The notes: generated by a model from the letters alone, not told the origin. Positions 33,709-47,213 are shown, numbered from the stretch's first letter. The stretch: DNA of 64,000 nt from an uncultured Mailhella sp. (GCF_905187505.1 NZ_CAJJIC010000001.1:24264-88263), one strand, 5' to 3'. Program-made: numbers and translations.

Positions 33709-34077
33709 ATGACTTTTTTTGATCACGTCCACCTCTGCTGCACCGACCTCGACGCCATGATCAACTTCTGGAAGCAGGCCTTCGGCGCTGAATTCGTGCG
33801 CTATCGCAAATTCGGAGGCGCCGACGGTGCGGTCGTCACGCTCTCCGGCGTTCAGATCTTCCTCAAGAAAATTCCCGAGGGCGCACCTCTGCCCGACGGC
33901 TCCGCCTGCGGAGTCAACCACCTGGGCATCCGCGTGGACGATCCCAACATCATGGCGGAAAAGCTCGTGAACGAATTCGGAGGAAAGCTGCTCAACAAGG
34001 CCAGCGACGACTGTTCCTTCGTCGCCGTGCCGCAGGGCGTCACCTTCGAGCTCATGCGCGTAGGCGCCGAAGTCTGA
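33709..34077 (+). CDS. VOC (glyoxalase/bleomycin-resistance/dioxygenase) family protein
   Basis: FDHVHLCCTDLDAMINFW... and VNHLGIRVDD. 122 aa. Confidence 0.8.
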   Translation: MTFFDHVHLCCTDLDAMINFWKQAFGAEFVRYRKFGGADGAVVTLSGVQIFLKKIPEGAPLPDGSACGVNHLGIRVDDPNIMAEKLVNEFGGKLLNKASDDCSFVAVPQGVTFELMRVGAEV

Positions 34078-34734: not shown

Positions 34735-36174
34735 ATGGTCAGAAAGGAAAAAGCCATCGACAGCTTTCAGGATAGAATCCGGGAAATTCCCGAAGCCCTC
34801 ACCGTCGTGGACCTGCCCGACTTCTTCGACTTCATCGACAACGCGCGCTTTGCCATCAACTTCGTCGATGAAAACGGCGTCATCATCTATGCCAACAAAG
34901 AAGCCAGAGAATCCCGCATCATTCCCGAGGAGTTCGTAGGACGCAGCCTCTATGATCTGAAAAAATACGGCATGATCCTGAATCCGGCAGCCATAAAGGT
35001 CATAGAGTCCGGCAAAGTGAACATCGGAGAGGTCACCCAGTACAGCGGCCGCACGTTCATGTCCATCACGGTGCCCGTCATAGACGACCAAAAAAGACTC
35101 GAGGGCGTCATGGCACTGACGTGCGACATCGCAGACGTGTATAACTTCATCATCGCGTCGTCCTCCAGGACACGGCATATCCAGGCCCCTCAAAGCTCCA
35201 CGTCCGAGCTGTTTCCTGACGCCGACGTCGTCATTGCCGAATCGTCGGAAATGAAGAACGTTCTGAAGCTGGTCGATAAGATAGCGCCCACCAGCGCTCC
35301 CGTGCTCATTCTCGGAGAGTCCGGCACCGGCAAGGAAGTGATGGCCAAGCTGATCCACAGCAAAAGCAGCCGCAGCAGGGAAAGACTGCTCGCGGTCAAC
35401 TGCGGCGCCATTCCGCCGGCGCTCATGGAATCGGAACTCTTCGGCTACGAAAAGGGAGCCTTTACGGGAGCATGGCGAAGCACTCCGGGCCTTTTTGAAG
35501 AGGCGGACGGCGGTACCCTCTTCCTCGACGAAATAGGAGATCTTGACCTTCAGCTTCAGGTCAAGCTGCTGCGCGTTCTTCAGGAAGGCAAATTCCGGCG
35601 CGTAGGCGGACGGAAGGACATGGACTGCCATGTGCGCATCATTGCGGCCACCAACAAAAATCTGCCTCTTCTCGTCAGGCAGGGACTGTTCCGCTCCGAT
35701 CTTTTCTACCGTCTGGACGTGTTTGCCCTTTCTCTCCCTCCACTGCGGGAGAGACGCCAGGACCTCATGAAGTTCATTCCCTTCTTTCTGGAAAAATACA
35801 ACAAGGCCTACGGATTCGCCCGCTACTTGACGAGCGATGCATGGACCCGGCTTCTTTCCTATGACTGGCCGGGCAATGTCAGAGAACTGAGCAACATGCT
35901 TGAACGGCTCGTCGTGCTGGCGGACAAAAATGAAATCGGCTCCGAAGACCTCGACAGGCATCTTCGACGCTCTTCACGCAAAAGCGAGAGCAGGCACATT
36001 CCGTCTCCTGACGACACCGAAACCATGACTCTCCCCGAAGCCACGGAAATTCTGGAAAGATCCATGATAGCCGACGCCCGCACAAAGTACGGAACGTGCC
36101 GGGCCATGGCCGATCATCTCGGCATCGATTTTTCCACGGTGGCCAGAAAGATGCGCAAATACGGCATACACTGA
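34735..36174 (+). CDS. Sigma54-dependent enhancer-binding transcriptional activator with an N-terminal PAS sensor (no receiver domain)
   Basis: PAS-like N-domain (FAINFVDENGVIIYANKEA...), AAA+ sigma54-interaction domain (GESGTGKEV, GAFTGA, LFLDEIGDL, RVIAATN), and C-terminal Fis-type HTH (MADHLGIDFSTVARKMRKYGI). Confidence 0.9.
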   Translation: MVRKEKAIDSFQDRIREIPEALTVVDLPDFFDFIDNARFAINFVDENGVIIYANKEARESRIIPEEFVGRSLYDLKKYGMILNPAAIKVIESGKVNIGEVTQYSGRTFMSITVPVIDDQKRLEGVMALTCDIADVYNFIIASSSRTRHIQAPQSSTSELFPDADVVIAESSEMKNVLKLVDKIAPTSAPVLILGESGTGKEVMAKLIHSKSSRSRERLLAVNCGAIPPALMESELFGYEKGAFTGAWRSTPGLFEEADGGTLFLDEIGDLDLQLQVKLLRVLQEGKFRRVGGRKDMDCHVRIIAATNKNLPLLVRQGLFRSDLFYRLDVFALSLPPLRERRQDLMKFIPFFLEKYNKAYGFARYLTSDAWTRLLSYDWPGNVRELSNMLERLVVLADKNEIGSEDLDRHLRRSSRKSESRHIPSPDDTETMTLPEATEILERSMIADARTKYGTCRAMADHLGIDFSTVARKMRKYGIH

Positions 36175-36463
36175 ATGGGCAGCCGCTTCATGACCGTCTC
36201 CGGGGCAGCCGCTCTGCATCCGTAAAAAGACCAGCGCGGCACTCTTCGAAATGATGCAGCCGGCTTCCTCTGTCCGCAGTCCGCACGACGCGCCCTTCTT
36301 CTTTTCTTCTTCCTTGAAAAACGCGGAGCTCGTCACGGCTTTTCCTCCGTGGCGACCTTTTATGCGCTCTTTGGAACAAAACACATAATATATTGTATTT
36401 ACTTATTTTTTAATAACTGAAAGAGAAAAATTTTCTTTGCTCAGACCGGATATGCAAAACGAC

Positions 36464-36480
36464 TGTGGCAAGAATCCACA
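36464..36480. promoter_or_regulatory. Candidate enhancer (UAS) dyad for the sigma54 activator
   Basis: TGTGGCAAGAATCCACA = TGT-N11-ACA, with arms TGTGG/CCACA, about 120-130 bp upstream of the -24 element. Its left half TGTGGCAA recurs as the reverse complement TTGCCACA at 36538-36545. Confidence 0.45.
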
Positions 36481-36505
36481 TCTATATGCCCGTATTTTCA
36501 CGTTT

Positions 36506-36523
36506 TGTGTTGTTTTTGCAACA
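36506..36523. promoter_or_regulatory. Second candidate enhancer dyad
   Basis: TGTGTTGTTTTTGCAACA (TGT-N12-ACA; inner arms TGTTG/CAACA). An AT-rich stretch (36555-36595) between the dyads and the promoter could bend DNA (IHF-like). Confidence 0.35.
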
Positions 36524-36596
36524 ATACGACGAGCATATTGCCACAAATCGTTTCTCCAAAATAAATTTTATTTTGAATTTCAATATATTATGCATA

Positions 36597-36612
36597 TGGC
36601 ACAAATATTGCT
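36597..36612 (+). promoter_or_regulatory. Sigma54 (-24/-12) promoter of the GRE operon
   Basis: TGGCAC-AAATA-TTGCT is an exact match to the TGGCAC-N5-TTGCW consensus. It lies about 45 nt upstream of the GRE ATG, which is preceded by AGGAGG (36647-36652). Confidence 0.85.
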
Positions 36613-36657
36613 TTCTTGGAGGGCATAGATCAGCAACCATCCCTCCAGGAGGATATC

Positions 36658-39174
36658 ATGGACACGTCATCCGCTTCCGTCAGCTACAGTCCCCAGGAAC
36701 AGGCCATAGCCTCAGGCAGCTATGTAGGCAACGAAAAGAATTCTCCGTGTCATTCGCGCTTCCAGAAGATCTTCAAGCGCTGCTTTGCCAACATGGTGCC
36801 CTATGTGGACGTGAACCGGGCAAAATACTTCACCGAATCCATGAAGGAAACGGAAGGAGAGCCTCTTGTTCTGCGCTACGCCCTTGCCATGAAGCATCTT
36901 GCGGAAAACCTGCCCGTGTACATCGAGGAAGACCAGCTTCTTGTCGGCCGCGTCGGCACCGACAAGGGACGCTACGGGCTTCTGTACCCCGAAATCATAG
37001 GCGACATCATGGGAGAAGGGCTGGAAGCCGCCCGCAAGAATCTGAGCTCTCCGCTGCACATCGACGATGACGATCTCTGCTTCGTCAAGGAAGAACTCGT
37101 ACCCTACTGGAAGGACAGAGCCTTCCATAAAAAGCTCATCCAGTCCATTCCGAAGGAACTCAGAAAGTTCACCTATGCCACGCCTGACGGCAGCGTGCCC
37201 CGTCCCTACGTGGGAGAACAGGCATCCATGAACGGCTGCCTCCAGTGGGTGCCCGACTACGAAAAGATCATCCGCAGGGGGGCTGCCGCCATACGCAGAG
37301 AAGCGGAGGAACGTCTGGCCCTTCTGGACAGAAACAATGCGAAGGAACTGTGGGAAAAGGAATTTTTCCTCAAGGCCATGATGACCATATGCGATGCGCT
37401 TGTGACCTGGGCGAAACGTCATGCCCGTGCCGCCCGCAGTCTGGCCGCATCGGAACAGGATCCCGTCCGTCGCGCCGAACTTGAGAACATTGCTGAAAAC
37501 TGCGAAAGAGTTCCCGAATATCCGGCAGAAACGTTCCATCAGGCCATGCAGTCCATGTGGTTTGTCCAGAGCATGATCAGACTGGAGCGCTGCGTAGGCT
37601 TCATGCTCGGCAACGGCCGCATGGATCAGTACCTCTACCCCTACTACAAGGCCGACGTGGAAGCCGGACGTCTGACCGATGACCAGGTGCTGGAACTTCT
37701 GGACTGTCTGTGGCTCCAGGAAGCGCAGTTTCTCAACCTGCCCGTTTCCGCCCAGTCCGCCACTCAGCACGAAGGCTACGCCCACTGGGAAGCCGCAACC
37801 GTGGGAGGCCAGACCCGCGACGGAGAGGATGCCACCAACGAACTGAGCTACCTCATACTCCGCTCGCGCAGGGAATGCCCGCTGCAGCAGCCCGACCTGG
37901 CAGCCCGCATACACGCCCGCTCTCCCGAAGCCTTCCTCTGGGCCGTCGCGGAAACGGTCAAGGTCGGCCAGGGCTTTCCCAAGCTGTACAACGACGAGGA
38001 AATCATTCCCCTGCATCTGGCCAAGGGCGCGCCGCTGCTCGACATCATGGACTACTGTGCTTCCGGCTGCACGGAAATCCGCATGCCCAACGTGGATTCG
38101 TACACGAGCCCATGCACACAGACCAACTGCACGGCCGCGGTGGAAACCACGCTGTTCAACGGCCGACTGAAAAGCTGCGGCGAAGAGCTTTTCTCTCTGG
38201 AAACGGGGGATCCCTGCGGATTCTGCAGCTGGGAGGAGTTCTGGAATGCATTCAAAAAGCAGATTCAGTTCATGATGCGCTACGCCCTTTTCCTGCAGTA
38301 CCAGATTCAGGAGCAGCGCGGTCAGAGCTATGCCGCTCCCATGGAGGACGCGCTTCATGACAAGGCCTTCGCCGCCTGCATGGATCTCGACACCCCCCGC
38401 AGCATTCCCGGCACGCTCGATCTGGGCTTCGTGGAATGCATAGGCTTTGCCACCGCCGTGGATTCTCTTGCGGCCGTCAAGCAGTTTGTCTTCGACGAGA
38501 AGGTTTTCACCATGCGTGAGCTGCTGGATGCTCTGGAATGCAACTTTGAAGGCAAGGAACACATCCGGCGCATTCTTCGTTCCGGCCACTGCTACGGCAA
38601 CAACGATCCCTACGCCGACAGCATAGGACGCGACATCGAAGCGGCATGTCAGGAAGTTCTTACCCAGAACTTCAAAAATACCGGCGTGCATCTGGATCTG
38701 CGCATGGTAAGCATTACGGCCAACATTCCCTTCGGCCGCATACTGGCGGCCTCTCCCAACGGACGTCTTGCCGGCATGCCCGTGTCCGACGGCTCATCGG
38801 CCTCTCAGGGCATGGACGTCAGCGGTCCCACGGCGGTGCTGCTGTCCAACTTCCACAGCAAGAACTGGGCCTCCACGTCGCGCGCGGCAAGACTGCTCAA
38901 CATCAAGTTCACGCCCGGCGCCGTGGCCGGCGACGAGGGAACCCGCAGGCTCATAGGCTTCTTCCGGGCCTTCTGCGATCTCAAGCTCTGGCATGTGCAG
39001 TTCAACGTCATCAATCAGAAGACCCTGCTGGCCGCCCAAAAGGATCCCCAGAAGTACCGCAACCTCATGGTGCGCGTGGCAGGATACAGCGCCTACTTCG
39101 TGGAGCTTTCCACCGCGCTGCAGAACGACATCATTTCCCGCAACGCCCATGACGACTTCGGAGCCGGACGATGA
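36658..39174 (+). CDS. Glycyl radical enzyme (PFL2/glycerol-dehydratase-like eliminase class), substrate unknown
   Basis: 838 aa from the ATG at 36658. C-terminal glycyl radical motif MVRVAGYSAYFVEL (Gly codon 39082-39084, residue 809). Thiyl loop YCASGCTEIRMP with Cys471-x-Glu473 (TGC at 38068-38070). Confidence 0.92.
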   Translation: MDTSSASVSYSPQEQAIASGSYVGNEKNSPCHSRFQKIFKRCFANMVPYVDVNRAKYFTESMKETEGEPLVLRYALAMKHLAENLPVYIEEDQLLVGRVGTDKGRYGLLYPEIIGDIMGEGLEAARKNLSSPLHIDDDDLCFVKEELVPYWKDRAFHKKLIQSIPKELRKFTYATPDGSVPRPYVGEQASMNGCLQWVPDYEKIIRRGAAAIRREAEERLALLDRNNAKELWEKEFFLKAMMTICDALVTWAKRHARAARSLAASEQDPVRRAELENIAENCERVPEYPAETFHQAMQSMWFVQSMIRLERCVGFMLGNGRMDQYLYPYYKADVEAGRLTDDQVLELLDCLWLQEAQFLNLPVSAQSATQHEGYAHWEAATVGGQTRDGEDATNELSYLILRSRRECPLQQPDLAARIHARSPEAFLWAVAETVKVGQGFPKLYNDEEIIPLHLAKGAPLLDIMDYCASGCTEIRMPNVDSYTSPCTQTNCTAAVETTLFNGRLKSCGEELFSLETGDPCGFCSWEEFWNAFKKQIQFMMRYALFLQYQIQEQRGQSYAAPMEDALHDKAFAACMDLDTPRSIPGTLDLGFVECIGFATAVDSLAAVKQFVFDEKVFTMRELLDALECNFEGKEHIRRILRSGHCYGNNDPYADSIGRDIEAACQEVLTQNFKNTGVHLDLRMVSITANIPFGRILAASPNGRLAGMPVSDGSSASQGMDVSGPTAVLLSNFHSKNWASTSRAARLLNIKFTPGAVAGDEGTRRLIGFFRAFCDLKLWHVQFNVINQKTLLAAQKDPQKYRNLMVRVAGYSAYFVELSTALQNDIISRNAHDDFGAGR

Positions 39175-40079
39175 CCGACGAAAAGACGAGCGGGATCATC
39201 TTCAACGTACAGAAGTTCTCCGTCCATGACGGCGAGGGGATAAGAACGCTCGTCTTTTTCAAGGGGTGTCCGCTCAGGTGCCGCTGGTGCAGCAATCCCG
39301 AATCCCAGAGCAGCCTGATGGAGCTTTCCTGGACCGAACAGGACTGCCTGCACTGCGGAACCTGCAGCAGGGTATGCTCCCGGGGAGCCGTCCGTCCTGC
39401 TGATGACGGCTCCCCCGTGGTGGACCGGAAGACGTGCCGCCCGGAACCGTCATGCCTGTGCACCCGGGCCTGTCCCGGAGGTGCGCTCGGCATCTACGGC
39501 AAAACCGTGACCGCCGGAGAAGTGCTTCACCGGATTCTCGAGGACCAGATTTTCTATGTACGCTCGGGAGGCGGCATGACGCTGGGCGGCGGCGAACCGC
39601 TGCATCAGCCGGAGTTCGCCCTTGCGGTTCTCCGTCTGGCCGGACAGGCGAGAATACGCACCAACATCGAAACCTGCGGTCATGTTTCCACCGAAGTCAT
39701 GCTGGCGGCAGCCGGTCTGCTCGACTCCATGTTCATGGACATAAAATGCCTGGATTCGGCAAGGCACAGGCAGTGGACGGGAACCGGCAACGAGCTGATT
39801 CTGAAAAACTTCGTCCGTGTGCGCGAGGCCTTTCCCCGCCTGCCGATGACCATACGCACACCTGTCATTCCCGGATTCAACGACAACGCGCGCGACATAG
39901 AAGACATCGCCCGCTTCGTCAAAAGGTTCGACAACGTGCGCTACGAGCTTCTGCCCTATCACCGGTACGGGGAGCAGAAATACCGCATGCTCGGACGCAT
40001 TCCCGGCATGGGCGAGGCAACCCTGTCGGATGAGAGGTTCCGGGAGCTGCGGGACCTGGCCGAACACCTTCCTCTGTAA
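39171..40079 (+). CDS. Glycyl radical enzyme activating enzyme (radical SAM)
   Basis: FKGCPLRCRWCSNPES (CX3CX2C) plus a ferredoxin-like insert with CLHCGTCSRVC and C..SCLCTRACP. The ATGA overlaps the GRE stop. Confidence 0.92.
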   Translation: MTDEKTSGIIFNVQKFSVHDGEGIRTLVFFKGCPLRCRWCSNPESQSSLMELSWTEQDCLHCGTCSRVCSRGAVRPADDGSPVVDRKTCRPEPSCLCTRACPGGALGIYGKTVTAGEVLHRILEDQIFYVRSGGGMTLGGGEPLHQPEFALAVLRLAGQARIRTNIETCGHVSTEVMLAAAGLLDSMFMDIKCLDSARHRQWTGTGNELILKNFVRVREAFPRLPMTIRTPVIPGFNDNARDIEDIARFVKRFDNVRYELLPYHRYGEQKYRMLGRIPGMGEATLSDERFRELRDLAEHLPL

Positions 40080-40107
40080 CGACAATCAGCATCCGCGAGG
40101 AAACCTC

Positions 40108-40713
40108 ATGTATGTGGTAGCATTCAACGGCAGTCCGAGAAAGACCGGCAACACGTCCATGCTGTTGCGCCGCTGTCTGGACATTCTGGAAAAAGAAGGC
40201 ATGGAAACAAGACTCATTCAGGTGGGCGGGACCGGCATTCACGGATGCCGTGCCTGCATGGCATACAGAAAAAACAATCTGGAACGCTGCGTCTTCAATG
40301 ACGACCCGCTCAATGAATGGCTGGAAGAAATGAAAAGGGCCGACGGCATACTTCTCGGCTCTCCCACGTATTTCTGGTCGCTCACGCCGGAAATGAAGGC
40401 CCTCATCGACCGAGCCGGCTTCATTGCCCGCGGAGCCCTGCGCCGCGGCGACGCGCGCTGTCTTTTCAGCGACAAGGTGGGCGCGGCGATTTCCGCCTAT
40501 TATCGTTCCGGCTCCATCCACACCATTCAGGCCATGCAGGCCTTCTTCCTGACCACGGGCATGATCGTGCCCGGCAGCGTGTACTGGCCGCAGGCCATGG
40601 ACGCCTCAAACGGCGCCATGCCTCACGGCGCGGACAAGGATGCCGACGGACTGCACTATGTGGACGAGCTCGGAAACGCTCTGGTCCGCCTTCTGAAAAA
40701 GCTTTGCGGCTGA
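40108..40713 (+). CDS. Flavodoxin-fold NAD(P)H-dependent FMN reductase-family protein (iron-sulfur-flavoprotein-like)
   Basis: VVAFNGSPRKTGNTS, ILLGSPTYFWSLT, and a partial Cys cluster GCRACMAYRKNNLERC. GAGG lies before the ATG at 40108. Confidence 0.75.
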   Translation: MYVVAFNGSPRKTGNTSMLLRRCLDILEKEGMETRLIQVGGTGIHGCRACMAYRKNNLERCVFNDDPLNEWLEEMKRADGILLGSPTYFWSLTPEMKALIDRAGFIARGALRRGDARCLFSDKVGAAISAYYRSGSIHTIQAMQAFFLTTGMIVPGSVYWPQAMDASNGAMPHGADKDADGLHYVDELGNALVRLLKKLCG

Positions 40714-42150
40714 ATGGAGACCGCCATGAATAAAAACCTTTCCTATGCCCTTCACAGCGCCGCCGTACTGGCGTTCATGTTTCTTTTTCAGTTCCTGCCT
40801 CCCGTAGCTCCGCTCACGAGCGTCAGCATGCAGGTCATCGGCGTCTTCATCGGCGTCATCTACGGCTGGGTCAACGTCGGCCTGGCGTGGCCCTCTCTGC
40901 TCGGCGTGGTGGCTCTGGGCTGCACGGACTATATGCCCATGACCACCGTGCTGCAGACGGCCTTCGGCACGCAGACGCTGGTCATGATACTCTCCCTGCT
41001 TCTTCTGGCAGCCTTCGTTCAGCAGGCCGATCTTACGGGAGTCATCCTCGACTGGCTGCTCGGCATGAAAAGCGCGCGCGGCAAGCCCTTTCTCACGCTG
41101 TTCTATTTTCTCATGGCCGGATTCCTTGCCGCACTTCTTTCCCAGAGCATCGCCGTCTTCGTCATCTTCCTCGAACTGTTCAAGGACCTCATGAAAAAAA
41201 CGGGAATAAAGCCATACTCTTCCGCCGTTCCCGCCTTTTTCGTAGGCATGGGCTTCTCCCTGTCCTTCGGGGACTCCGCCCTGCCCTTCAAAGGCAGCGG
41301 CATTGTGGCCATAGGCGCCTATCAGGCCATCACCGGCGAAAGCATGAATCTGGTGCACTTCGTCCTGTTCTGCATGCCCCTGAGCGTGCTCGGCATTGCT
41401 GCCTACGTGCTTTTCTGCAAATACTGCATGAAGGTCGACCTCTCGCCGCTCAAAAACTACGTTCACGTCAAGGAGAACGTCACTCTTTCCCTGAAAAAGA
41501 AAGTCGCCCTCGTCGGCGTGGTGGGCACGCTGCTCTTCCTGCTGCTGCCCGGCGTCGTTCCGCCCTCCTCTTCGCTGCACGACGTATTCGGCATACTCGG
41601 ACTCGGCGGGCTCTCCCTGCTGCTGCTTGCCGTGCTCTTCATCATCCGTGTGGAAGGCGAACCGCTCATCGACGTGGGCAAGATCGCTCCGTTCTTTCCC
41701 TGGAACGTGTTTTTCATTCTGGTGGTGCTGTTCCCGCTGGCCAACGCCATCTCCTCCGACGTCGTCGGCCTCAACGCCATCATTTCCTCCGGCGTTTCCG
41801 CGCTGCTGAACAACATGCCCACGGCTCTCATCATGGCCACGGTCATCTTTCTTGCCGCCTACATCACCAACTTTGCCAACAACATGGTCATATGCGCGCT
41901 GTTCGTGACCATTGTCTGCTTCATCAGAGACAGCCTTCCCATTCATCCGGAAATTCTGTCCTACCTTGTGGTGCTGAGCAGCAGCCTTTCCATGTTCTTC
42001 CCCGCGGCCAATCCCATCAACGCCATCATCTTCGGACAGCGGGACTGCGTTTCCTTCCGTCAGGAATTCACGCACGGCTTCATCTGCTGTTCGTTCCTGT
42101 GCTGCGTGCTTCTGGTTTCCGGTTATGTCTGGAGCCGCATCGTTTTCTGA
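40714..42150 (+). CDS. Polytopic permease, ion-transporter-superfamily (SLC13/DASS-like) by eye
   Basis: 478 aa and highly hydrophobic, with two-repeat architecture and hairpin-like LSQSIAVFV / ANNMVICALF segments where DASS carriers have SNT-type motifs. The start immediately follows the upstream stop. Confidence 0.6.
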   Translation: METAMNKNLSYALHSAAVLAFMFLFQFLPPVAPLTSVSMQVIGVFIGVIYGWVNVGLAWPSLLGVVALGCTDYMPMTTVLQTAFGTQTLVMILSLLLLAAFVQQADLTGVILDWLLGMKSARGKPFLTLFYFLMAGFLAALLSQSIAVFVIFLELFKDLMKKTGIKPYSSAVPAFFVGMGFSLSFGDSALPFKGSGIVAIGAYQAITGESMNLVHFVLFCMPLSVLGIAAYVLFCKYCMKVDLSPLKNYVHVKENVTLSLKKKVALVGVVGTLLFLLLPGVVPPSSSLHDVFGILGLGGLSLLLLAVLFIIRVEGEPLIDVGKIAPFFPWNVFFILVVLFPLANAISSDVVGLNAIISSGVSALLNNMPTALIMATVIFLAAYITNFANNMVICALFVTIVCFIRDSLPIHPEILSYLVVLSSSLSMFFPAANPINAIIFGQRDCVSFRQEFTHGFICCSFLCCVLLVSGYVWSRIVF

Positions 42151-42180
42151 TCCGCTCTCACTTTTTCATAAGGACATCAC

Positions 42181-43038
42181 ATGAACATCTTTGATTTTCG
42201 CCTGCGTCCTCCCTACCGGAGCTTCACCCGGCTGGGCATATATTCCCCCGTCTGCAATGAAACCGCTCCCCAGAAGCATCACGGCATCCCCAGCCGGGCC
42301 GCCGGAGAAAAATCCATGGAGCTCTTCTGGAAGGAAATGGCTTCGGCCGGCATCAGGAAGGGCGTGGCCATAGGCCGTCAGGTGCCCGACGATACCGCCT
42401 CGGTCTCCAACGACGACATACACGCCCTCGCCATGGAATACCCCGACAAGATCATTCCCTTCGGCAGTCTCGACGTATCCCGAGGCATAGCGGCAACCAT
42501 GGACGAACTGGAGCGCTGCATGGAGCTCGGCTTCCGGGGATTTGCCATGGAACCCGCCTACTGCATGCCTCCGCGCCATGCGGACGCCAACGTGCTCTAT
42601 CCCATCTACGCCCGCTGCGAAAAGGCACACCTTCCCGTCGTGCTCACCATGAGCTTCTTTCAGGGGAATCTCGACTTCTCCGATCCCACGGCCGTGCAGC
42701 ACGTGGCAAACGATTTTCCCGAGCTCCAGATCGTACTGGCCCACGGCTGCTATCCCTGGATTCCCCATGTCTTCAACGTCTGTCTGGTCTGTCCCAATGT
42801 CTGGCTGCTCCCTGACCTTTACATGCTGAACCCGGACACGCCCGGCAACGGTATGTACGGCGAAGCCATGCGCTGGCTTGACGGAGAAAGAATACTGTTC
42901 GGTTCCGCCTATCCCTGCTACAACATGGAACAGGCCGTCCGTGACGTGGACCGATTCGGCTTTTCGGAAGAACACAAGGAAAAATTCTTCCACGGCAACG
43001 CGGAAAAGCTGCTGGGCGCCGATCTTGTGAACGGCTAG
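42181..43038 (+). CDS. Amidohydrolase_2-fold (COG2159-like) protein with non-canonical metal-ligand positions
   Basis: Overall pattern IFDFRLRP...VLAHGCYPW...ERILFGSAYP resembles the iDxHxH...aHxG.pw...lfGSDyP layout of the ACMSD/LigI family, but with R-x-R in place of H-x-H and Ala in place of the terminal Asp. Confidence 0.7.
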   Translation: MNIFDFRLRPPYRSFTRLGIYSPVCNETAPQKHHGIPSRAAGEKSMELFWKEMASAGIRKGVAIGRQVPDDTASVSNDDIHALAMEYPDKIIPFGSLDVSRGIAATMDELERCMELGFRGFAMEPAYCMPPRHADANVLYPIYARCEKAHLPVVLTMSFFQGNLDFSDPTAVQHVANDFPELQIVLAHGCYPWIPHVFNVCLVCPNVWLLPDLYMLNPDTPGNGMYGEAMRWLDGERILFGSAYPCYNMEQAVRDVDRFGFSEEHKEKFFHGNAEKLLGADLVNG

Positions 43039-43107
43039 CATCCATTATCGGATCTGTGCCTTTCGAGGCGCATCTTCGGATCGCCGGCTTTTCGTCCGGC
43101 AGGCAAA

Positions 43108-43143
43108 GGCGACACGGGCTTCCCCTGGCCCGCGTCGCCTTTT
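43108..43143 (+). terminator. Rho-independent terminator of the GRE operon
   Basis: GGCGACACGGGC / GCCCGCGTCGCC 12-bp stem (one mismatch), 8-nt loop, followed by TTTTGCG. Confidence 0.7.
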
Positions 43144-43256
43144 GCGTCATGCCGGACCTCCGGCCCGGCAAGCGGAAGAAAGCGGACGTTGCCTTCCTTC
43201 CCGGGACGGGCTAGGGTGGAGGAAAGCGCACGGCCCATTGCCCGCCGAAGGAGGAT

Positions 43257-43565
43257 ATGTTCTTGCTTTACCCCATGTTCATACAGCGTCGGCTTTTCGG
43301 AGGGCTTGCCGGAGAACTGCCCGATTTTCCCGGCTGCGTTCCCGAGGGAGATACCATGGATGAACTCATGGAAAACGTGCAGGAGGCCGCAGGTCTCTGG
43401 ATGGAAGAGCAGAACATGACGATGCTGCCCGAACCTTCCTGTCCCGGGGAAGACGCCGACGGCTGCCCGCCTCTTCTCGTGGAAATAACGTTTCCGTCTC
43501 AGCACCGCCCGGGCGACAAACGCCCTGCGCCCTCCCCGGAAAACGGCGCTTCCTGCTCGTTGTGA
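43257..43565 (+). CDS. HicB-like antitoxin-family protein (orphan, possibly degenerate)
   Basis: YPMFIQRRLFGGLAGELPDFPGCVPEGDTMDELMENVQEAAGLWMEE...LPEPS matches the HicB/UPF0150 core (vPdlPGC..qGdT.eEa..n..eAi). The C-terminus is low-complexity. The AAGGAGG sits only 2 nt from the ATG, so TTG at 43263 is an alternative start. Confidence 0.45.
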   Translation: MFLLYPMFIQRRLFGGLAGELPDFPGCVPEGDTMDELMENVQEAAGLWMEEQNMTMLPEPSCPGEDADGCPPLLVEITFPSQHRPGDKRPAPSPENGASCSL

Positions 43566-43665: not shown

Positions 43666-44682
43666 ATGAAATTCATCCATCTTTCCCACGGCTCTCTCGA
43701 CTGGGCCCCTGAGCTCATCGTCCGCTGGACGGACGCGGCCGCCCGTTCCGGCAGACCGGATCCCTTCAGCTGCACCCCGGCATGGCAGCTTGCCTTTCAC
43801 GACGCCTTCGCACCGTCAAGAAGGCTGTTCATCCAAGAGAAGGGAAAAAACGTTATCGCCTTTGCCGAGCTTGCTCTTCTGTCCGGTCAGATCATTCTCG
43901 TGCCCGTAGAATCGCACTGGATTTCGGCAAGTCCCCTGCTGGGGCCGGAAGCCGACGAACTTTTCGCCGAAGCCCTGCCCTTCATCACCCGGGAATGCGG
44001 GGGACACCCGCCCTGCTTTCTTCTCAGCGGCATGGAAAAAAACTGTGAACTCTTCCGCCGCCTCTTTCTCCGCTTCTCCCCGCAGTTCCGATTTCTGAAG
44101 CAGCCCGTCTCTCTTCAGCGCAGCGCCTCGCTGCAGGGAGGAATGGACGGCTATCTTTCCAGACGCTCCGGCAACTTCCGCTCAAAAATGAAAAAAGCCC
44201 GCAGAAGGGCTGCGGACAACGGCGTCGTCTTTGAACGCATCGTGCCTTCCGGCACAGAGGAAGCCGACGCCGTCTATGCGCGCATGGTCTCCGTGGAGGA
44301 AAAGAGCTGGAAGGGAAAAGGCCGCTGCGGCATGACGGAACATCCCTCACTGGAATTCTACCACGCCATGATGCGGCGTCTTGCCGCATATCGGGGCGGG
44401 AGGGTCATGTTCGCCATGCATGAGGGCAAGGACATCGGCTTCATTTTCGGAGGCATGGCCGGTTCCTGCTACCGCGGACAGCAGTTCAGCTATGATGCGG
44501 ACTGGAAGGCCTTTTCCATAGGTGATCTGCTTCAGCTCAACCAGCTTCTCTGGCTGTGCGAGGAGGGAGCCGTCCGTTACGACATGGGCATGAGCGATCA
44601 TCCTTCCATGGCCTACAAGACGCACTGGGCGGAAATGGAACTCTCCCTTCATGCCTGCCTGCTTCTTCCCGTGCGTGTCTGA
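43666..44682 (+). CDS. GNAT-fold acetyltransferase (CelD/BioF2-like, Acetyltransf_6-type)
   Basis: 338 aa. EEKSWKGKG, GKDIGFIFGG and IGDLLQLNQLLWLCEEGAVRYDMG are typical of this family. Confidence 0.7.
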   Translation: MKFIHLSHGSLDWAPELIVRWTDAAARSGRPDPFSCTPAWQLAFHDAFAPSRRLFIQEKGKNVIAFAELALLSGQIILVPVESHWISASPLLGPEADELFAEALPFITRECGGHPPCFLLSGMEKNCELFRRLFLRFSPQFRFLKQPVSLQRSASLQGGMDGYLSRRSGNFRSKMKKARRRAADNGVVFERIVPSGTEEADAVYARMVSVEEKSWKGKGRCGMTEHPSLEFYHAMMRRLAAYRGGRVMFAMHEGKDIGFIFGGMAGSCYRGQQFSYDADWKAFSIGDLLQLNQLLWLCEEGAVRYDMGMSDHPSMAYKTHWAEMELSLHACLLLPVRV

Positions 44683-45736: not shown

Positions 45737-46034
45737 CGCCTCCTGCCGCCGAAAAGCGGCTGAACGCGATATCCGACCGTCCGCATCATGATGCGGACGG
45801 TCTTTTTCATGGTTTCCACTCCTTCCGGTCAGCGCGTAAGGCGCACCCCTTCAGCGCCACGAAGCACGAAGCCTTCCGTAAGGACGCCGCCCCCCCGTCC
45901 CATCTTCTTTTGCTCCGATCCTCAGGCTCAGGGCGGAAAAGACCGGCTCCCGCATCTTGCCATGAGAAAGGCTGTGGACTAGCATGGCTCTACCCATGCC
46001 GCCGCGCATGATCACCCTGTTTCCCCGCATTGCC

Positions 46035-47213
46035 ATGAACTACAGAAAAATTCTGCTTCTTTCCCTCGGTCATCTGTCCTGCGATCTCAACTCTCACGCC
46101 CTTCCCGCCCTGCTGCCCTATCTGGCGGCGGCGCACGGCTTCGACTATCAGACCTGCGGCTTTCTGGCCTTTGCCTATTCCGCCGTGGCTTCCCTGGTTC
46201 AGCCGGGACTCGGGCTTCTGGCCGACAGAATAGCCCGGGGCTGGTTCATTCCTCTCGGCATTCTCATGGCCGCCACGGGCATAGGCGCCACAGGCTTTCT
46301 CTCCAATGAATACGCCATGTTCCTTTCCCTGGTCGTCGGAGGCATAGGCGCGGCTGTCTTCCACCCCGAAGCGGCGCGCTACGCCAACATCGTTTCCGGC
46401 GACCGCAAGGGCGTCGGCCTCAGCATCTTTTCCGTGGGCGGCAACGGCGGCATGCTCATGGGACCGGTCATCGTCATGCTGGCCGTAGGCGGCGTGCCCA
46501 TGGGAGACTTTACCCTCGGAGGCTTCGGCCTGCACGGCACGGCGGCCTTCTGTCTGCTCGGTCTCGTCATGGCCTCCCTGCTCTTCTGGCGCGTGTCCGC
46601 CTGGGACATGGCGGCAAGGACTCCCAAGGTCCTGAGCGGCAGCGCGGGAGCTTCCAATGAATGGGGATCGTTCGGCATACTGTCCGGCTGCCTGCTCACC
46701 CGCATGGGCCTTACCGTGGCCTTCACCACCTATCTGCCCCTCTACTGGCAGGGCGTGTTTCACGCCTCCGCCGCCACGGGCAACCTCATGCTCGTTCTCT
46801 TTTCCGTGTTCGGGGTGGCCAGCAACCTCACCGGAGGCGCGGCCGCCGATCGCTGGGGCTTTCGCCGCATCATACGCTGGGCGTCCTTCCTCTCCCTGCC
46901 CATACTGGCCGTCTTTCCTCTGGTGACAAGCCCGTGGCTGGCCGGTCTTCTGCTCGCGCCGCTGGCCATTGCCCTGTTCGCCCCGTTCAGCTCCATGGTC
47001 GTGCTTGGGCAGCGCTATCTTTCCAAGAACATGGGATTCGCCTCAGGCATCACGCTCGGCGTGGCCGTGAGCGTGGGCGGGATGTTCGCTCCCGTTCTCG
47101 GCTGGGCTGCCGACGCGTGGGGAGGACTCGCCCCCGCCATGCATCTGCTCACGCCTCTCGCCGTCATCGGCGCAGTATGTGCGTGCTTTTTGAGGGAACC
47201 GAAGAACGCCTGA
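46035..47213 (+). CDS. MFS transporter
   Basis: About 12 hydrophobic segments with MFS motif-A-like GLLADRIARG. Start at MNYRKILL (46035). Confidence 0.85.
   Translation: MNYRKILLLSLGHLSCDLNSHALPALLPYLAAAHGFDYQTCGFLAFAYSAVASLVQPGLGLLADRIARGWFIPLGILMAATGIGATGFLSNEYAMFLSLVVGGIGAAVFHPEAARYANIVSGDRKGVGLSIFSVGGNGGMLMGPVIVMLAVGGVPMGDFTLGGFGLHGTAAFCLLGLVMASLLFWRVSAWDMAARTPKVLSGSAGASNEWGSFGILSGCLLTRMGLTVAFTTYLPLYWQGVFHASAATGNLMLVLFSVFGVASNLTGGAAADRWGFRRIIRWASFLSLPILAVFPLVTSPWLAGLLLAPLAIALFAPFSSMVVLGQRYLSKNMGFASGITLGVAVSVGGMFAPVLGWAADAWGGLAPAMHLLTPLAVIGAVCACFLREPKNA

Follow-up and report, generated by a model that had tools for sequence, protein, structure and literature searches.

What does a glycyl radical enzyme (GRE) act on when the genes that surround it fit none of the described pathways of its kind? 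The question is raised by an operon at positions 34,735 to 43,143 of a 64,000-nt stretch of DNA from an uncultured Mailhella sp. (GCF_905187505.1, NZ_CAJJIC010000001.1:24264-88263; this entire stretch is called the window below). Here, a gene for a sigma-54 enhancer-binding protein (EBP) is followed by a sigma-54 promoter and by genes for a GRE, its radical-SAM activating enzyme (AE, or activase), a flavoprotein, a permease and an Amidohydro_2 protein. Gut Desulfovibrionaceae produce hydrogen sulfide from dietary and host sulfonates by means of GREs that release sulfite. A preliminary description of the locus held that the GRE and its partners matched nothing known, and set the sulfonate family aside for want of TRAP or sulfite-handling genes. 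Neither statement stood: the GRE falls into the sulfonate C-S lyase family, and the partners encoded in the operon recur beside members of that family. We give an even chance to the reading that the operon is an inducible module which imports a small anionic organosulfonate and cleaves it by radical chemistry to supply sulfite for respiration.

A GRE of the sulfonate C-S lyase family

The GRE gene (positions 36658 to 39174, + strand) starts at an ATG preceded by AGGAGG and encodes 838 aa, with a PFL-like domain (PF02901, 532 bits) and a Gly_radical domain (PF01228, 91 bits). The protein has the hallmarks of the GRE superfamily, an RVAGYSA motif with Gly809 and an SGCTE motif with Cys471, and its CxE motif, Cys471-Thr-Glu473, aligns with Cys468 and Glu470 of IslA; the numbering Cys471/Glu473/Gly809 given in the preliminary description matches this translation. 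The best PDB matches, at 2e-292 to 3e-278, were IseG of Desulfovibrio vulgaris (5YMR, 2.4e-292), HpsG of Bilophila wadsworthia (6LON) and IslA of B. wadsworthia (7KQ3), and the next were CutC, glycerol dehydratase and HypD at 1e-157 or weaker. The window GRE aligns end to end with IslA and IseG, both from the same Desulfovibrionaceae group as the window's host, and is 49-53% identical to IslA, IseG and HpsG (51-52% in the case of HpsG), whereas these three are 61-73% identical among themselves. The published sequence-similarity-network criterion for clustering C-S lyases is about 60% identity or more, a level at which the window GRE does not join the characterised enzymes.

With NCBIfam model NF048011 (the 'HpsG' equivalog, cut-off 1000), the window GRE scored 1164 and the members of its clade 1141-1178, against 1504 for IslA, 1556 for IseG and 1510 for HpsG, which leaves it ~350 bits under the true members; this model does not separate substrates, as the isethionate lyases score like HpsG. 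The scores with the equivalogs of six other families stayed under their cut-offs (score/cut-off: HpfG, NF048009, 410/1000; CutC 520/1050; HypD 507/1100; IAD 368/1100; HPAD 276/1150; PFL 80/994). On these sequence relationships, the GRE belongs to the sulfonate C-S lyase (IslA/IseG/HpsG) family, yet is the orthologue of no characterised enzyme. It lies outside the characterised clade and has lost a key substrate-binding arginine, and no assignment of the neighbourhood to a pathway was found in the literature or the libraries searched, so the earlier statement that this gene set is assigned to no characterised pathway still holds.

Close relatives of the GRE are rare. A search of 5.8 billion sequences returned only seven clusters with identities of 73-90% and a further two with 60%, the bulk being at 57% or less; when 1.84 billion representatives of 50%-identity clusters were searched exhaustively, a protein of Mailhella massiliensis (P0008; P and L numbers are our handles for proteins and loci) was found at 60% and the next full-length match at 46-47%; and a close homologue occurs in one of 185,579 species-representative genomes, that of an uncultured Mailhella sp. 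In their annotations, the relatives are assigned to uncultured Mailhella or Bilophila. In neighbour-joining analysis the window clade was monophyletic in 50 of 50 bootstraps, as was its union with the sister clade of P0008, while the Arg-containing remainder of the tree was monophyletic in only 21 of 50, which makes the rooting uncertain. As judged from these searches and trees, the clade is rare and well supported, and is located in Mailhella/Bilophila-like gut Desulfovibrionaceae. That a GRE clade should be uncharacterised is not surprising in itself, because a June 2026 review reports entire clades still without validation; according to the same review, the characterised C-S-cleaving GREs are only IslA, IseG and HpsG, and their substrates only isethionate and 2,3-dihydroxypropane-1-sulfonate (DHPS) (PMC13450708). 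As a separate observation, two IslA-like GREs in our comparison (P0072 and P0078) have both sulfonate arginines and carry CxC or CxS in place of CxE.

A remodelled substrate pocket

The pocket was compared by way of aligned positions and of what has been published on the structures of IslA and IseG, with the HpsG pocket residues taken from the 2026 review (PMC13450708). The pocket-region residues of the window GRE are Asn192, Gln196, Phe315, His371, Trp377, Gln488, Arg682, Val684 and Ile686. In the characterised enzymes the sulfonate is anchored by two arginines and one glutamine (IslA Arg189, Gln193 and Arg678), which are conserved across the IseG network cluster (PMC6453916, PMC8473560) and listed as catalytically essential in IslA (PMC13450708; for Arg189 also PMC8473560). 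The window GRE keeps the glutamine and the second arginine of this anchor and has lost the first arginine. Compared with IslA and IseG, Arg189 is replaced by Asn, Thr312 by Phe (Phe or Tyr in the clade), Asn368 by His, Tyr485 by Gln and Phe682 by Ile. The Thr312 position makes a van der Waals contact with isethionate in IseG (PMC6453916). The last four changes are specific to the clade, except that Ile at position 682 is also found in HpsG, which differs from the window GRE in keeping the arginine and in having Ala at 312 and Tyr at 485. Retained in the window GRE, in IslA numbering, are Gln193, Arg678 and the family-particular residues Trp374 and Val680, together with the catalytic Cys, the CxE Glu and the radical Gly. 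Because one defining feature is missing, we describe the GRE as probably working like the C-S lyases but do not class it among them. The anion site may be reduced to Arg682 and Gln196, perhaps aided by the new His371 and Gln488, which might substitute for the lost arginine, and Phe315 would fill the space beside it. With the pocket remodelled in this way, isethionate and DHPS are both improbable as substrates.

These comparisons bear directly on the possibility that the enzyme is an isofunctional isethionate or (2S)-DHPS sulfite-lyase, that is, a paralogue of IslA, IseG and HpsG that is served by another transporter. Its NF048011 score exceeds the cut-off, its close relatives bear the name '(2S)-3-sulfopropanediol dehydratase' in UniRef and NCBI, it shares the Ile at 682 with HpsG, and its accessory genes are common to the locus of an HpsG orthologue (L088, below). 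However, the model is blind to substrate and the score falls well short of those of the true members; the window GRE is about equally distant from all three enzymes, which are closer to each other; the essential Arg189 is lost and positions 312, 368 and 485 differ as well, in addition to 682 relative to IslA and IseG; the sensor domain of the EBP has no relation to its counterparts in HpsG-like and IslA-like loci; and Arg-containing paralogues exist in other Mailhella records (L090), consistent with divergent specificity. We therefore consider isofunctionality improbable.

A change of chemistry is slightly less improbable, though still doubtful in our view. By analogy with HpfG as opposed to HpsG, the enzyme would then be a C-O dehydratase or another eliminase whose substrate is a diol or hydroxy acid bearing a sulfonate or carboxylate group; no sulfite would be released, and the product, a carbonyl sulfonate or acid, would be processed further. 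The loss of one sulfonate-anchoring arginine could re-orient the substrate, and the Amidohydro_2 protein of the operon is structurally nearest to a hydratase/decarboxylase class that acts on carboxylates. Moreover, the sister-clade locus of M. massiliensis (L094) encodes Crp, TRAP, GRE, AE, a short-chain dehydrogenase/reductase (SDR) and TauE, and the combination of its GRE with an SDR and a TauE-type exporter resembles the reduce-and-export logic (HpfG-HpfD-exporter) of the HpfGHDE pathway, in which a GRE eliminase acts on a C3 sulfonate (PMC11489063). The solute-binding protein of L094 shares only 24-29% identity with its counterparts in the HpsG-like and IslA-like loci. On the other side, all characterised members of the nearest family are C-S lyases (PMC13450708), the four pocket residues Arg678, Gln193, Trp374 and Val680 are kept, HpfG itself belongs to a different clade (its model gave 410 against a cut-off of 1000), and the window operon, unlike the HpfG pathway, offers a sulfonated product neither a reductase or dehydrogenase nor an exporter.

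A conserved operon under predicted sigma-54 control

The window contains every part listed in the preliminary description (EBP, promoter, five co-directional genes and a strong terminator hairpin), with small corrections that include gene starts. All six genes are located on the + strand and are closely packed. The EBP (479 aa, positions 34735 to 36174) has the Pfam domains PAS_10, Sigma54_activat (230 bits), AAA_lid_14 and HTH_50, and a GAFTGA motif is seen in its translation. A consensus scan placed a probable terminator-like hairpin 3' of this gene (36330 to 36355, + strand; 9-bp stem with 6 GC pairs and a T-rich tail). Further downstream, TGTGG/CCACA-type palindromes and a CCACAAA repeat at 36460 to 36560 (+ strand) are candidate upstream activator sites, followed by the promoter at 36597 to 36611 (+ strand; -24 TGGCAC, -12 TTGC). 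The exact TGGCAC-N5-TTGC element reported earlier occurs once in the window, at a chance expectation of 0.21, and such a single match is weak evidence by itself. The element is, in addition, conserved in five related loci, where 58-67 nt separate it from the GRE start downstream: the orthologous L001, L002, L003 and L008, and the HpsG-like L088. In an alignment, TTGTGG...CCACAA blocks upstream of the promoter were conserved among the window, L001, L002, L008 and L097. The spacing of the -24 GG and -12 GC, the conservation in orthologues and a cognate EBP with GAFTGA together predict sigma-54 control. Orthologues of the EBP occupy the same position in L001 (82% identical) and L003 (60%). Sigma-54 EBPs also adjoin the HpsG-like and IslA-like loci; these are 36% identical to the window EBP, and their sensor domains are ~30% identical or unalignable.

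At the end of the operon an intrinsic terminator hairpin (about 43103 to 43147, + strand) was calculated at -41.2 kcal/mol with z = -6.8 and is followed by UUUUG, in agreement with the terminator noted before.

The six-gene order recurs in L001, L002 (89% GRE identity) and L003 (74%) with differing flanks, and the operon portion recurs in the metagenome contig L097; a partial copy is found on contig L101, which is labelled as human gut. The order GRE-activase-flavoprotein-permease-amidohydrolase, whose conservation in other genomes the preliminary description had proposed to check, is thus found elsewhere. Relative to the 74% relative L003, all six genes are under purifying selection, with dN/dS of 0.08-0.36 and with synonymous sites saturated. 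These data bear on the suspicion that the operon is a chance juxtaposition of genes or a decaying remnant. Nothing was found in its favour. At GRE identities of 74-90%, at least five independent contigs that differ in their flanks share the gene order and the promoter, and purifying selection acts on every gene; we count that explanation as refuted and regard any remaining chance of it as negligible. The earlier view of the locus as a substrate-inducible, sigma-54/EBP-controlled anaerobic module around a CxE GRE 1,2-eliminase is supported.

Activase, flavoprotein and permease

The activase gene (39171 to 40079, + strand; 302 aa) overlaps the GRE stop by 4 nt. Its product matches TIGR02494 with 333 bits (cut-off 174) and contains the motif CPLRCRWC (CX3CX2C) and a ferredoxin-like insert; with the HpsH equivalog it scored 392, under the cut-off of 430. 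The following gene encodes a flavodoxin-fold protein of the FMN_red family (Pfam FMN_red, 101 bits) at 40108 to 40713 (+ strand). Its start is most likely the ATG at 40108, preceded by GAGGAAA, which gives 201 aa and matches the length of relatives; an alternative start at 40030, overlapping the activase, is unlikely. The copies in L001 and L003 are 82% and 46% identical, respectively.

The permease (40714 to 42150, + strand; 478 aa), the presumed importer of the substrate, is a CitMHS/SLC13-like member of the ion-transporter superfamily. The earlier designation 'SLC13/DASS-like' is a loose label, because TIGR00785 (DASS) gave 38 bits against a cut-off of 198.6 and only Pfam CitMHS passes (41.3 bits, cut-off 31.9). 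PDB matches to VcINDY and SLC13 proteins were weak (1e-5 to 1e-8).

A permease homologue with 53% identity is encoded directly 3' of another GRE and activase in L095 and L096, a locus that also contains TauE and a zinc-dependent alcohol dehydrogenase (Zn-ADH). This locus (L095:6501-16860, the same in L096; genome of ~2.5 Mb) encodes a GRE of 822 aa, an AE, the SLC13-like permease, a metallo-beta-lactamase (MBL)-fold protein, a 492-aa protein, Zn-ADH, TauE, a cupin and another MBL-fold protein, and its permease, P0347, was present in 160 blocks of the sequence collection. The L095 GRE has, in IslA numbering, Ser189, Asn193 and Lys678, and stays under every NCBIfam cut-off. Judged by sequence, this seems to be one more GRE locus that is uncharacterised and apparently common. 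The L095-type and L134-type loci belong to gut and environmental anaerobes. The former share with the window the permease directly after GRE and AE, and the latter a DFRxRP-type Amidohydro_2 protein (35% identical) directly before GRE-AE-TRAP. In contrast to the window, the GREs of both types, 41-42% identical to the window's, have Ser or Ala at 189, Asn at 193 and Lys at 678, and the remaining partners in these loci comprise MBL-fold proteins, Zn-ADH, TauE and a cupin.

Recurrence of the Amidohydro_2 protein

Amidohydrolases of the class PF04909 (ACMSD/LigI/LigJ) are defined by an HxH motif on strand 1 and an Asp on strand 8, which serve in metal binding or as catalytic base. The last gene of the operon (42181 to 43038, + strand) encodes a non-canonical TIM-barrel protein of 285 aa (PF04909, 112 bits) that belongs to a subfamily in which, upon inspection of the alignment, DFRLRPP replaces the strand-1 HxH and GSAYP the strand-8 GSDxP. 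Invariant residues are Asp5, Arg7, Arg9, Arg66, Asp135, His188 and Asp212. Both in sequence (9e-53) and, according to Foldseek, in the fold of its AlphaFold model (pLDDT 92.7; TM 0.90), the closest match was BB4693 of Bordetella bronchiseptica (PDB 3IRS); the decarboxylase/hydratase class (ACMSD/LigI/LigJ) came next in Foldseek at a TM of about 0.65. BB4693 (3IRS/3K4W) shares the N-terminal DFRLRPP and reads GxAYP where the strand-8 Asp would be expected, but is only about 34% identical, comes from an aerobic beta-proteobacterium and is uncharacterised; no mention of BB4693 or 3IRS was found in the literature searched. A link to metallo bile-salt hydrolases was considered for the operon protein and rejected, the Bilophila enzymes described in 2026 being 101-kDa Amidohydro_3 proteins rather than members of PF04909.

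Members of this subfamily accompany several kinds of GRE. In L088 and L100, a copy 75% identical to that of the window is encoded directly 3' of an HpsG orthologue (78-79% identical to 6LON) and its activase. Another one follows an Arg-containing lyase in Mailhella (L090/L091; 53%), a third (30%, with the same DFRxRP motif) is found where an IslA-type microcompartment cluster ends (L006/L007), with sigma-54 EBPs close by, and a fourth (35%) precedes the GRE of a further uncharacterised clade (L129, L134-136). A 'predicted amidohydrolase' (locus 00649) ends the islAB microcompartment cluster of B. wadsworthia and was listed without comment by Burrichter et al. (PMC8667426). The IslA and IseG loci differ from the window in their shell, aldehyde dehydrogenase, phosphotransacetylase and TRAP genes, in place of which the window has the CitMHS-like permease and the flavoprotein. 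The subfamily is not universal among C-S lyase loci: a D. piger-type locus is without it and has an Amidohydro_3 protein and a second GRE instead. That locus (L177:1245-13469, and L178) encodes an EBP, an AE, a GRE (810 aa), Amidohydro_3 (548 aa), a major facilitator superfamily (MFS) transporter, a GRE (830 aa) and an AE. The second GRE belongs to cluster P0093 with 768 members; the glycine-radical domain match of the first is faint, and this protein may be a non-canonical radical enzyme.

The HpsG-orthologue locus L088 resembles the window in several respects. It has the order GRE-AE-Amidohydro_2, a sigma-54 EBP and a -24/-12 promoter as far from its GRE start as in the window, and an N-terminally truncated, divergently oriented copy of the flavoprotein (81% identical) adjoins the HpsG orthologue. 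The GREs are only 52% identical, the activases 49% and the EBPs, with unrelated sensor domains, 36%, and a TRAP transporter of the HpsKLM type stands in L088 against the CitMHS-like permease of the window. The parts expected to carry specificity thus diverge while the accessory proteins are kept at 75-81%, which suggests that the Amidohydro_2 protein and the flavoprotein have an accessory role independent of the particular substrate. In the preliminary description, the two were put forward as enzymes that would process the product of the GRE.

One form that such a role could take is that of GRE helpers rather than metabolic enzymes, with the flavoprotein as a dedicated reductant of the activase clusters and the TIM barrel clearing carbonyl-bisulfite adducts or some other by-product that all C-S lyases have in common. 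In the cell, PFL-AE receives its electrons from flavodoxin (PMC13450708), the two accessory proteins diverge far less than the GREs do between loci with different GREs, the Amidohydro_2 protein accompanies at least four GRE types and its three invariant arginines suggest an anion site. On the other hand, the pair also occurs in the GRE-free locus L108, many Amidohydro_2 relatives stand beside ene-reductase-like flavoenzymes, and the D. piger-type locus has no such Amidohydro_2. We regard the helper role as a minority possibility, if the least remote of the alternatives considered here; it is compatible with organosulfonate cleavage by the GRE.

Occurrences outside GRE loci were recorded as follows. 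L108 (2515-7902) encodes an Amidohydro_2 protein, an MFS sugar-type transporter, an FMN_red protein (48% identical to the window flavoprotein), a second Amidohydro_2 protein, an SDR and a Crp-type regulator, and shows that the pair exists as a unit outside GRE loci. Many Amidohydro_2 relatives at 33-37% identity lie beside FadH/BaiCD-like Fe-S flavoenzymes and an EBP; the pairing of a DFRxRP Amidohydro_2 with such a flavoenzyme (OYE and Pyr_redox_2) was seen in L111, L116, L118, L130, L154, L161 and L092, with Amidohydro_2 at about 10001 in most and a sigma-54 EBP often present. L092, from Clostridia and without a GRE, was examined as a possible sulfonate cluster and discarded, its two TPP enzymes scoring 330 and 295 against the Xsc cut-off of 676. 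In L102, which has a 77% identical Amidohydro_2, no GRE was detected, a Pfam scan of the upstream open reading frames being uninformative. To judge from L108, the relatives beside flavoenzymes and the D. piger-type locus, the Amidohydro_2 protein and the flavoprotein are not purely GRE helpers.

It is also conceivable that the clade performs a radical elimination seen in no known GRE, with the flavoprotein and the non-canonical Amidohydro_2 protein as a new two-enzyme unit, an idea that we hold to be as improbable as isofunctionality with the known lyases. Two versions would fit. According to the first, a dianionic sulfonate such as 3-sulfopropionate or 3-sulfolactate would enter via the SLC13-like permease and follow a CoA-independent route, with desaturation and hydration to a hydroxy-sulfonate and subsequent cleavage to pyruvate and sulfite; B. 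wadsworthia is reported to respire 3-sulfopropionate, though no pathway for this is known (PMC11489063). According to the second, the leaving group would be other than sulfite, for example a sulfate ester, which the lost anchoring arginine would fit.

A candidate route for organosulfonate respiration

How, then, could the six genes work together in the cleavage of an organosulfonate? The PAS-domain EBP would sense the substrate or a derivative and activate the sigma-54 promoter at 36597, and the CitMHS/SLC13-like permease would import the small anionic compound. The radical-SAM activase would install the radical on Gly809. The thiyl radical at Cys471 would then abstract a hydrogen from the hydroxyl-bearing carbon and Glu473 would deprotonate the hydroxyl, upon which the neighbouring C-S bond would break, as in the chemistry of IslA and HpsG, to give a carbonyl product and sulfite for dissimilatory sulfite reduction. 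As accessory enzymes, the flavoprotein and the Amidohydro_2 protein would not be bound to any one substrate. To judge from the pocket residues, the most likely substrate is some organosulfonate besides isethionate and DHPS. Chemically, 3-sulfolactate is attractive, as its dianion would suit an SLC13-like carrier and its elimination would yield pyruvate, and no test singles it out.

Several lines of evidence support an organosulfonate as the substrate. The nearest solved relatives of the GRE are IseG, HpsG and IslA, and catalytic and pocket residues are retained; its own relatives are assigned to Mailhella and Bilophila, and Mailhella clusters with two organosulfonate respirers, Bilophila and Taurinivorans (PMC13219744); neighbours linked to sulfonates occur in the TRAP-GRE-AE-SDR-TauE arrangement of L094 and in the TauE locus with the permease homologue; and the accessory proteins are shared with L088. 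Further support for the proposed module comes from the distinct clade, the conserved promoter, the synteny and the purifying selection.

Other findings weigh against this reading. At the position of IslA Arg189 the arginine is kept in all 117 other close homologues compared, whereas Asn is found in the window GRE and P0001-4, Ile in P0005-7, the relatives at 74% identity among them, and Asn in the sister clade; with the loss of this residue a sulfonate might not bind, or the leaving group might not be sulfite. The interpretation of the pocket, moreover, comes from alignment and from published descriptions of IslA and IseG. No gene for sulfite reductase (Dsr), TauE, an aldehyde dehydrogenase or a microcompartment shell was found in the window, flanks included, and the DASS assignment of the permease is weak. 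Finally, the presence of Amidohydro_2 and FMN_red proteins is no proof of sulfonate chemistry, because the subfamily and the pair also occur without any GRE.

Neighbouring genes

The operon is flanked by housekeeping genes, upstream for an aminotransferase, homoserine dehydrogenase, GreA, YicC and a MiaB-like protein, downstream for HemC, NAD kinase, GatB and PBP1, and these flanks are unlike those of L001 and L002. GC content is slightly lower in the module (0.55-0.60) than in the flanks (0.61-0.64), a difference that is not decisive as a signal of horizontal transfer. A glyoxalase-fold protein is encoded just 5' of the EBP gene (33709 to 34077, + strand); this gene is probably unrelated to the operon, as it has no counterpart at the corresponding position in L001 and L002. 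Just past the terminator lies an open reading frame of 102 aa (43257 to 43565, + strand) that by eye only is HicB-antitoxin-like, followed by genes for an Acetyltransf_6 (FemAB-like GNAT) protein (43666 to 44682, + strand) and an MFS transporter (45984 to 47213).

Significance

In a survey of Mailhella genomes, hpsGH/islAB homologues were counted in 75%, with clades not separated (PMC13219744). Surveys that count hpsG/islA homologues in Mailhella may lump different activities. The naming as '(2S)-3-sulfopropanediol dehydratase' across the family is unreliable because NF048011, the equivalog that carries this name, cannot distinguish substrates, and HpsG itself is described in the literature as a sulfolyase, not a dehydratase. 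The Amidohydro_2 protein, a recurrent partner in the IslA-type, HpsG-like and related GRE loci compared here, deserves attention in its own right. That an essential arginine has been replaced naturally in a sulfonate-lyase lineage is relevant to the way in which such enzymes hold the leaving group. If the first version of the new elimination were true, it would supply the missing route for the respiration of 3-sulfopropionate. With its own sensor, transporter and conserved operon, the clade is a target for finding another substrate that feeds the production of hydrogen sulfide in the gut.

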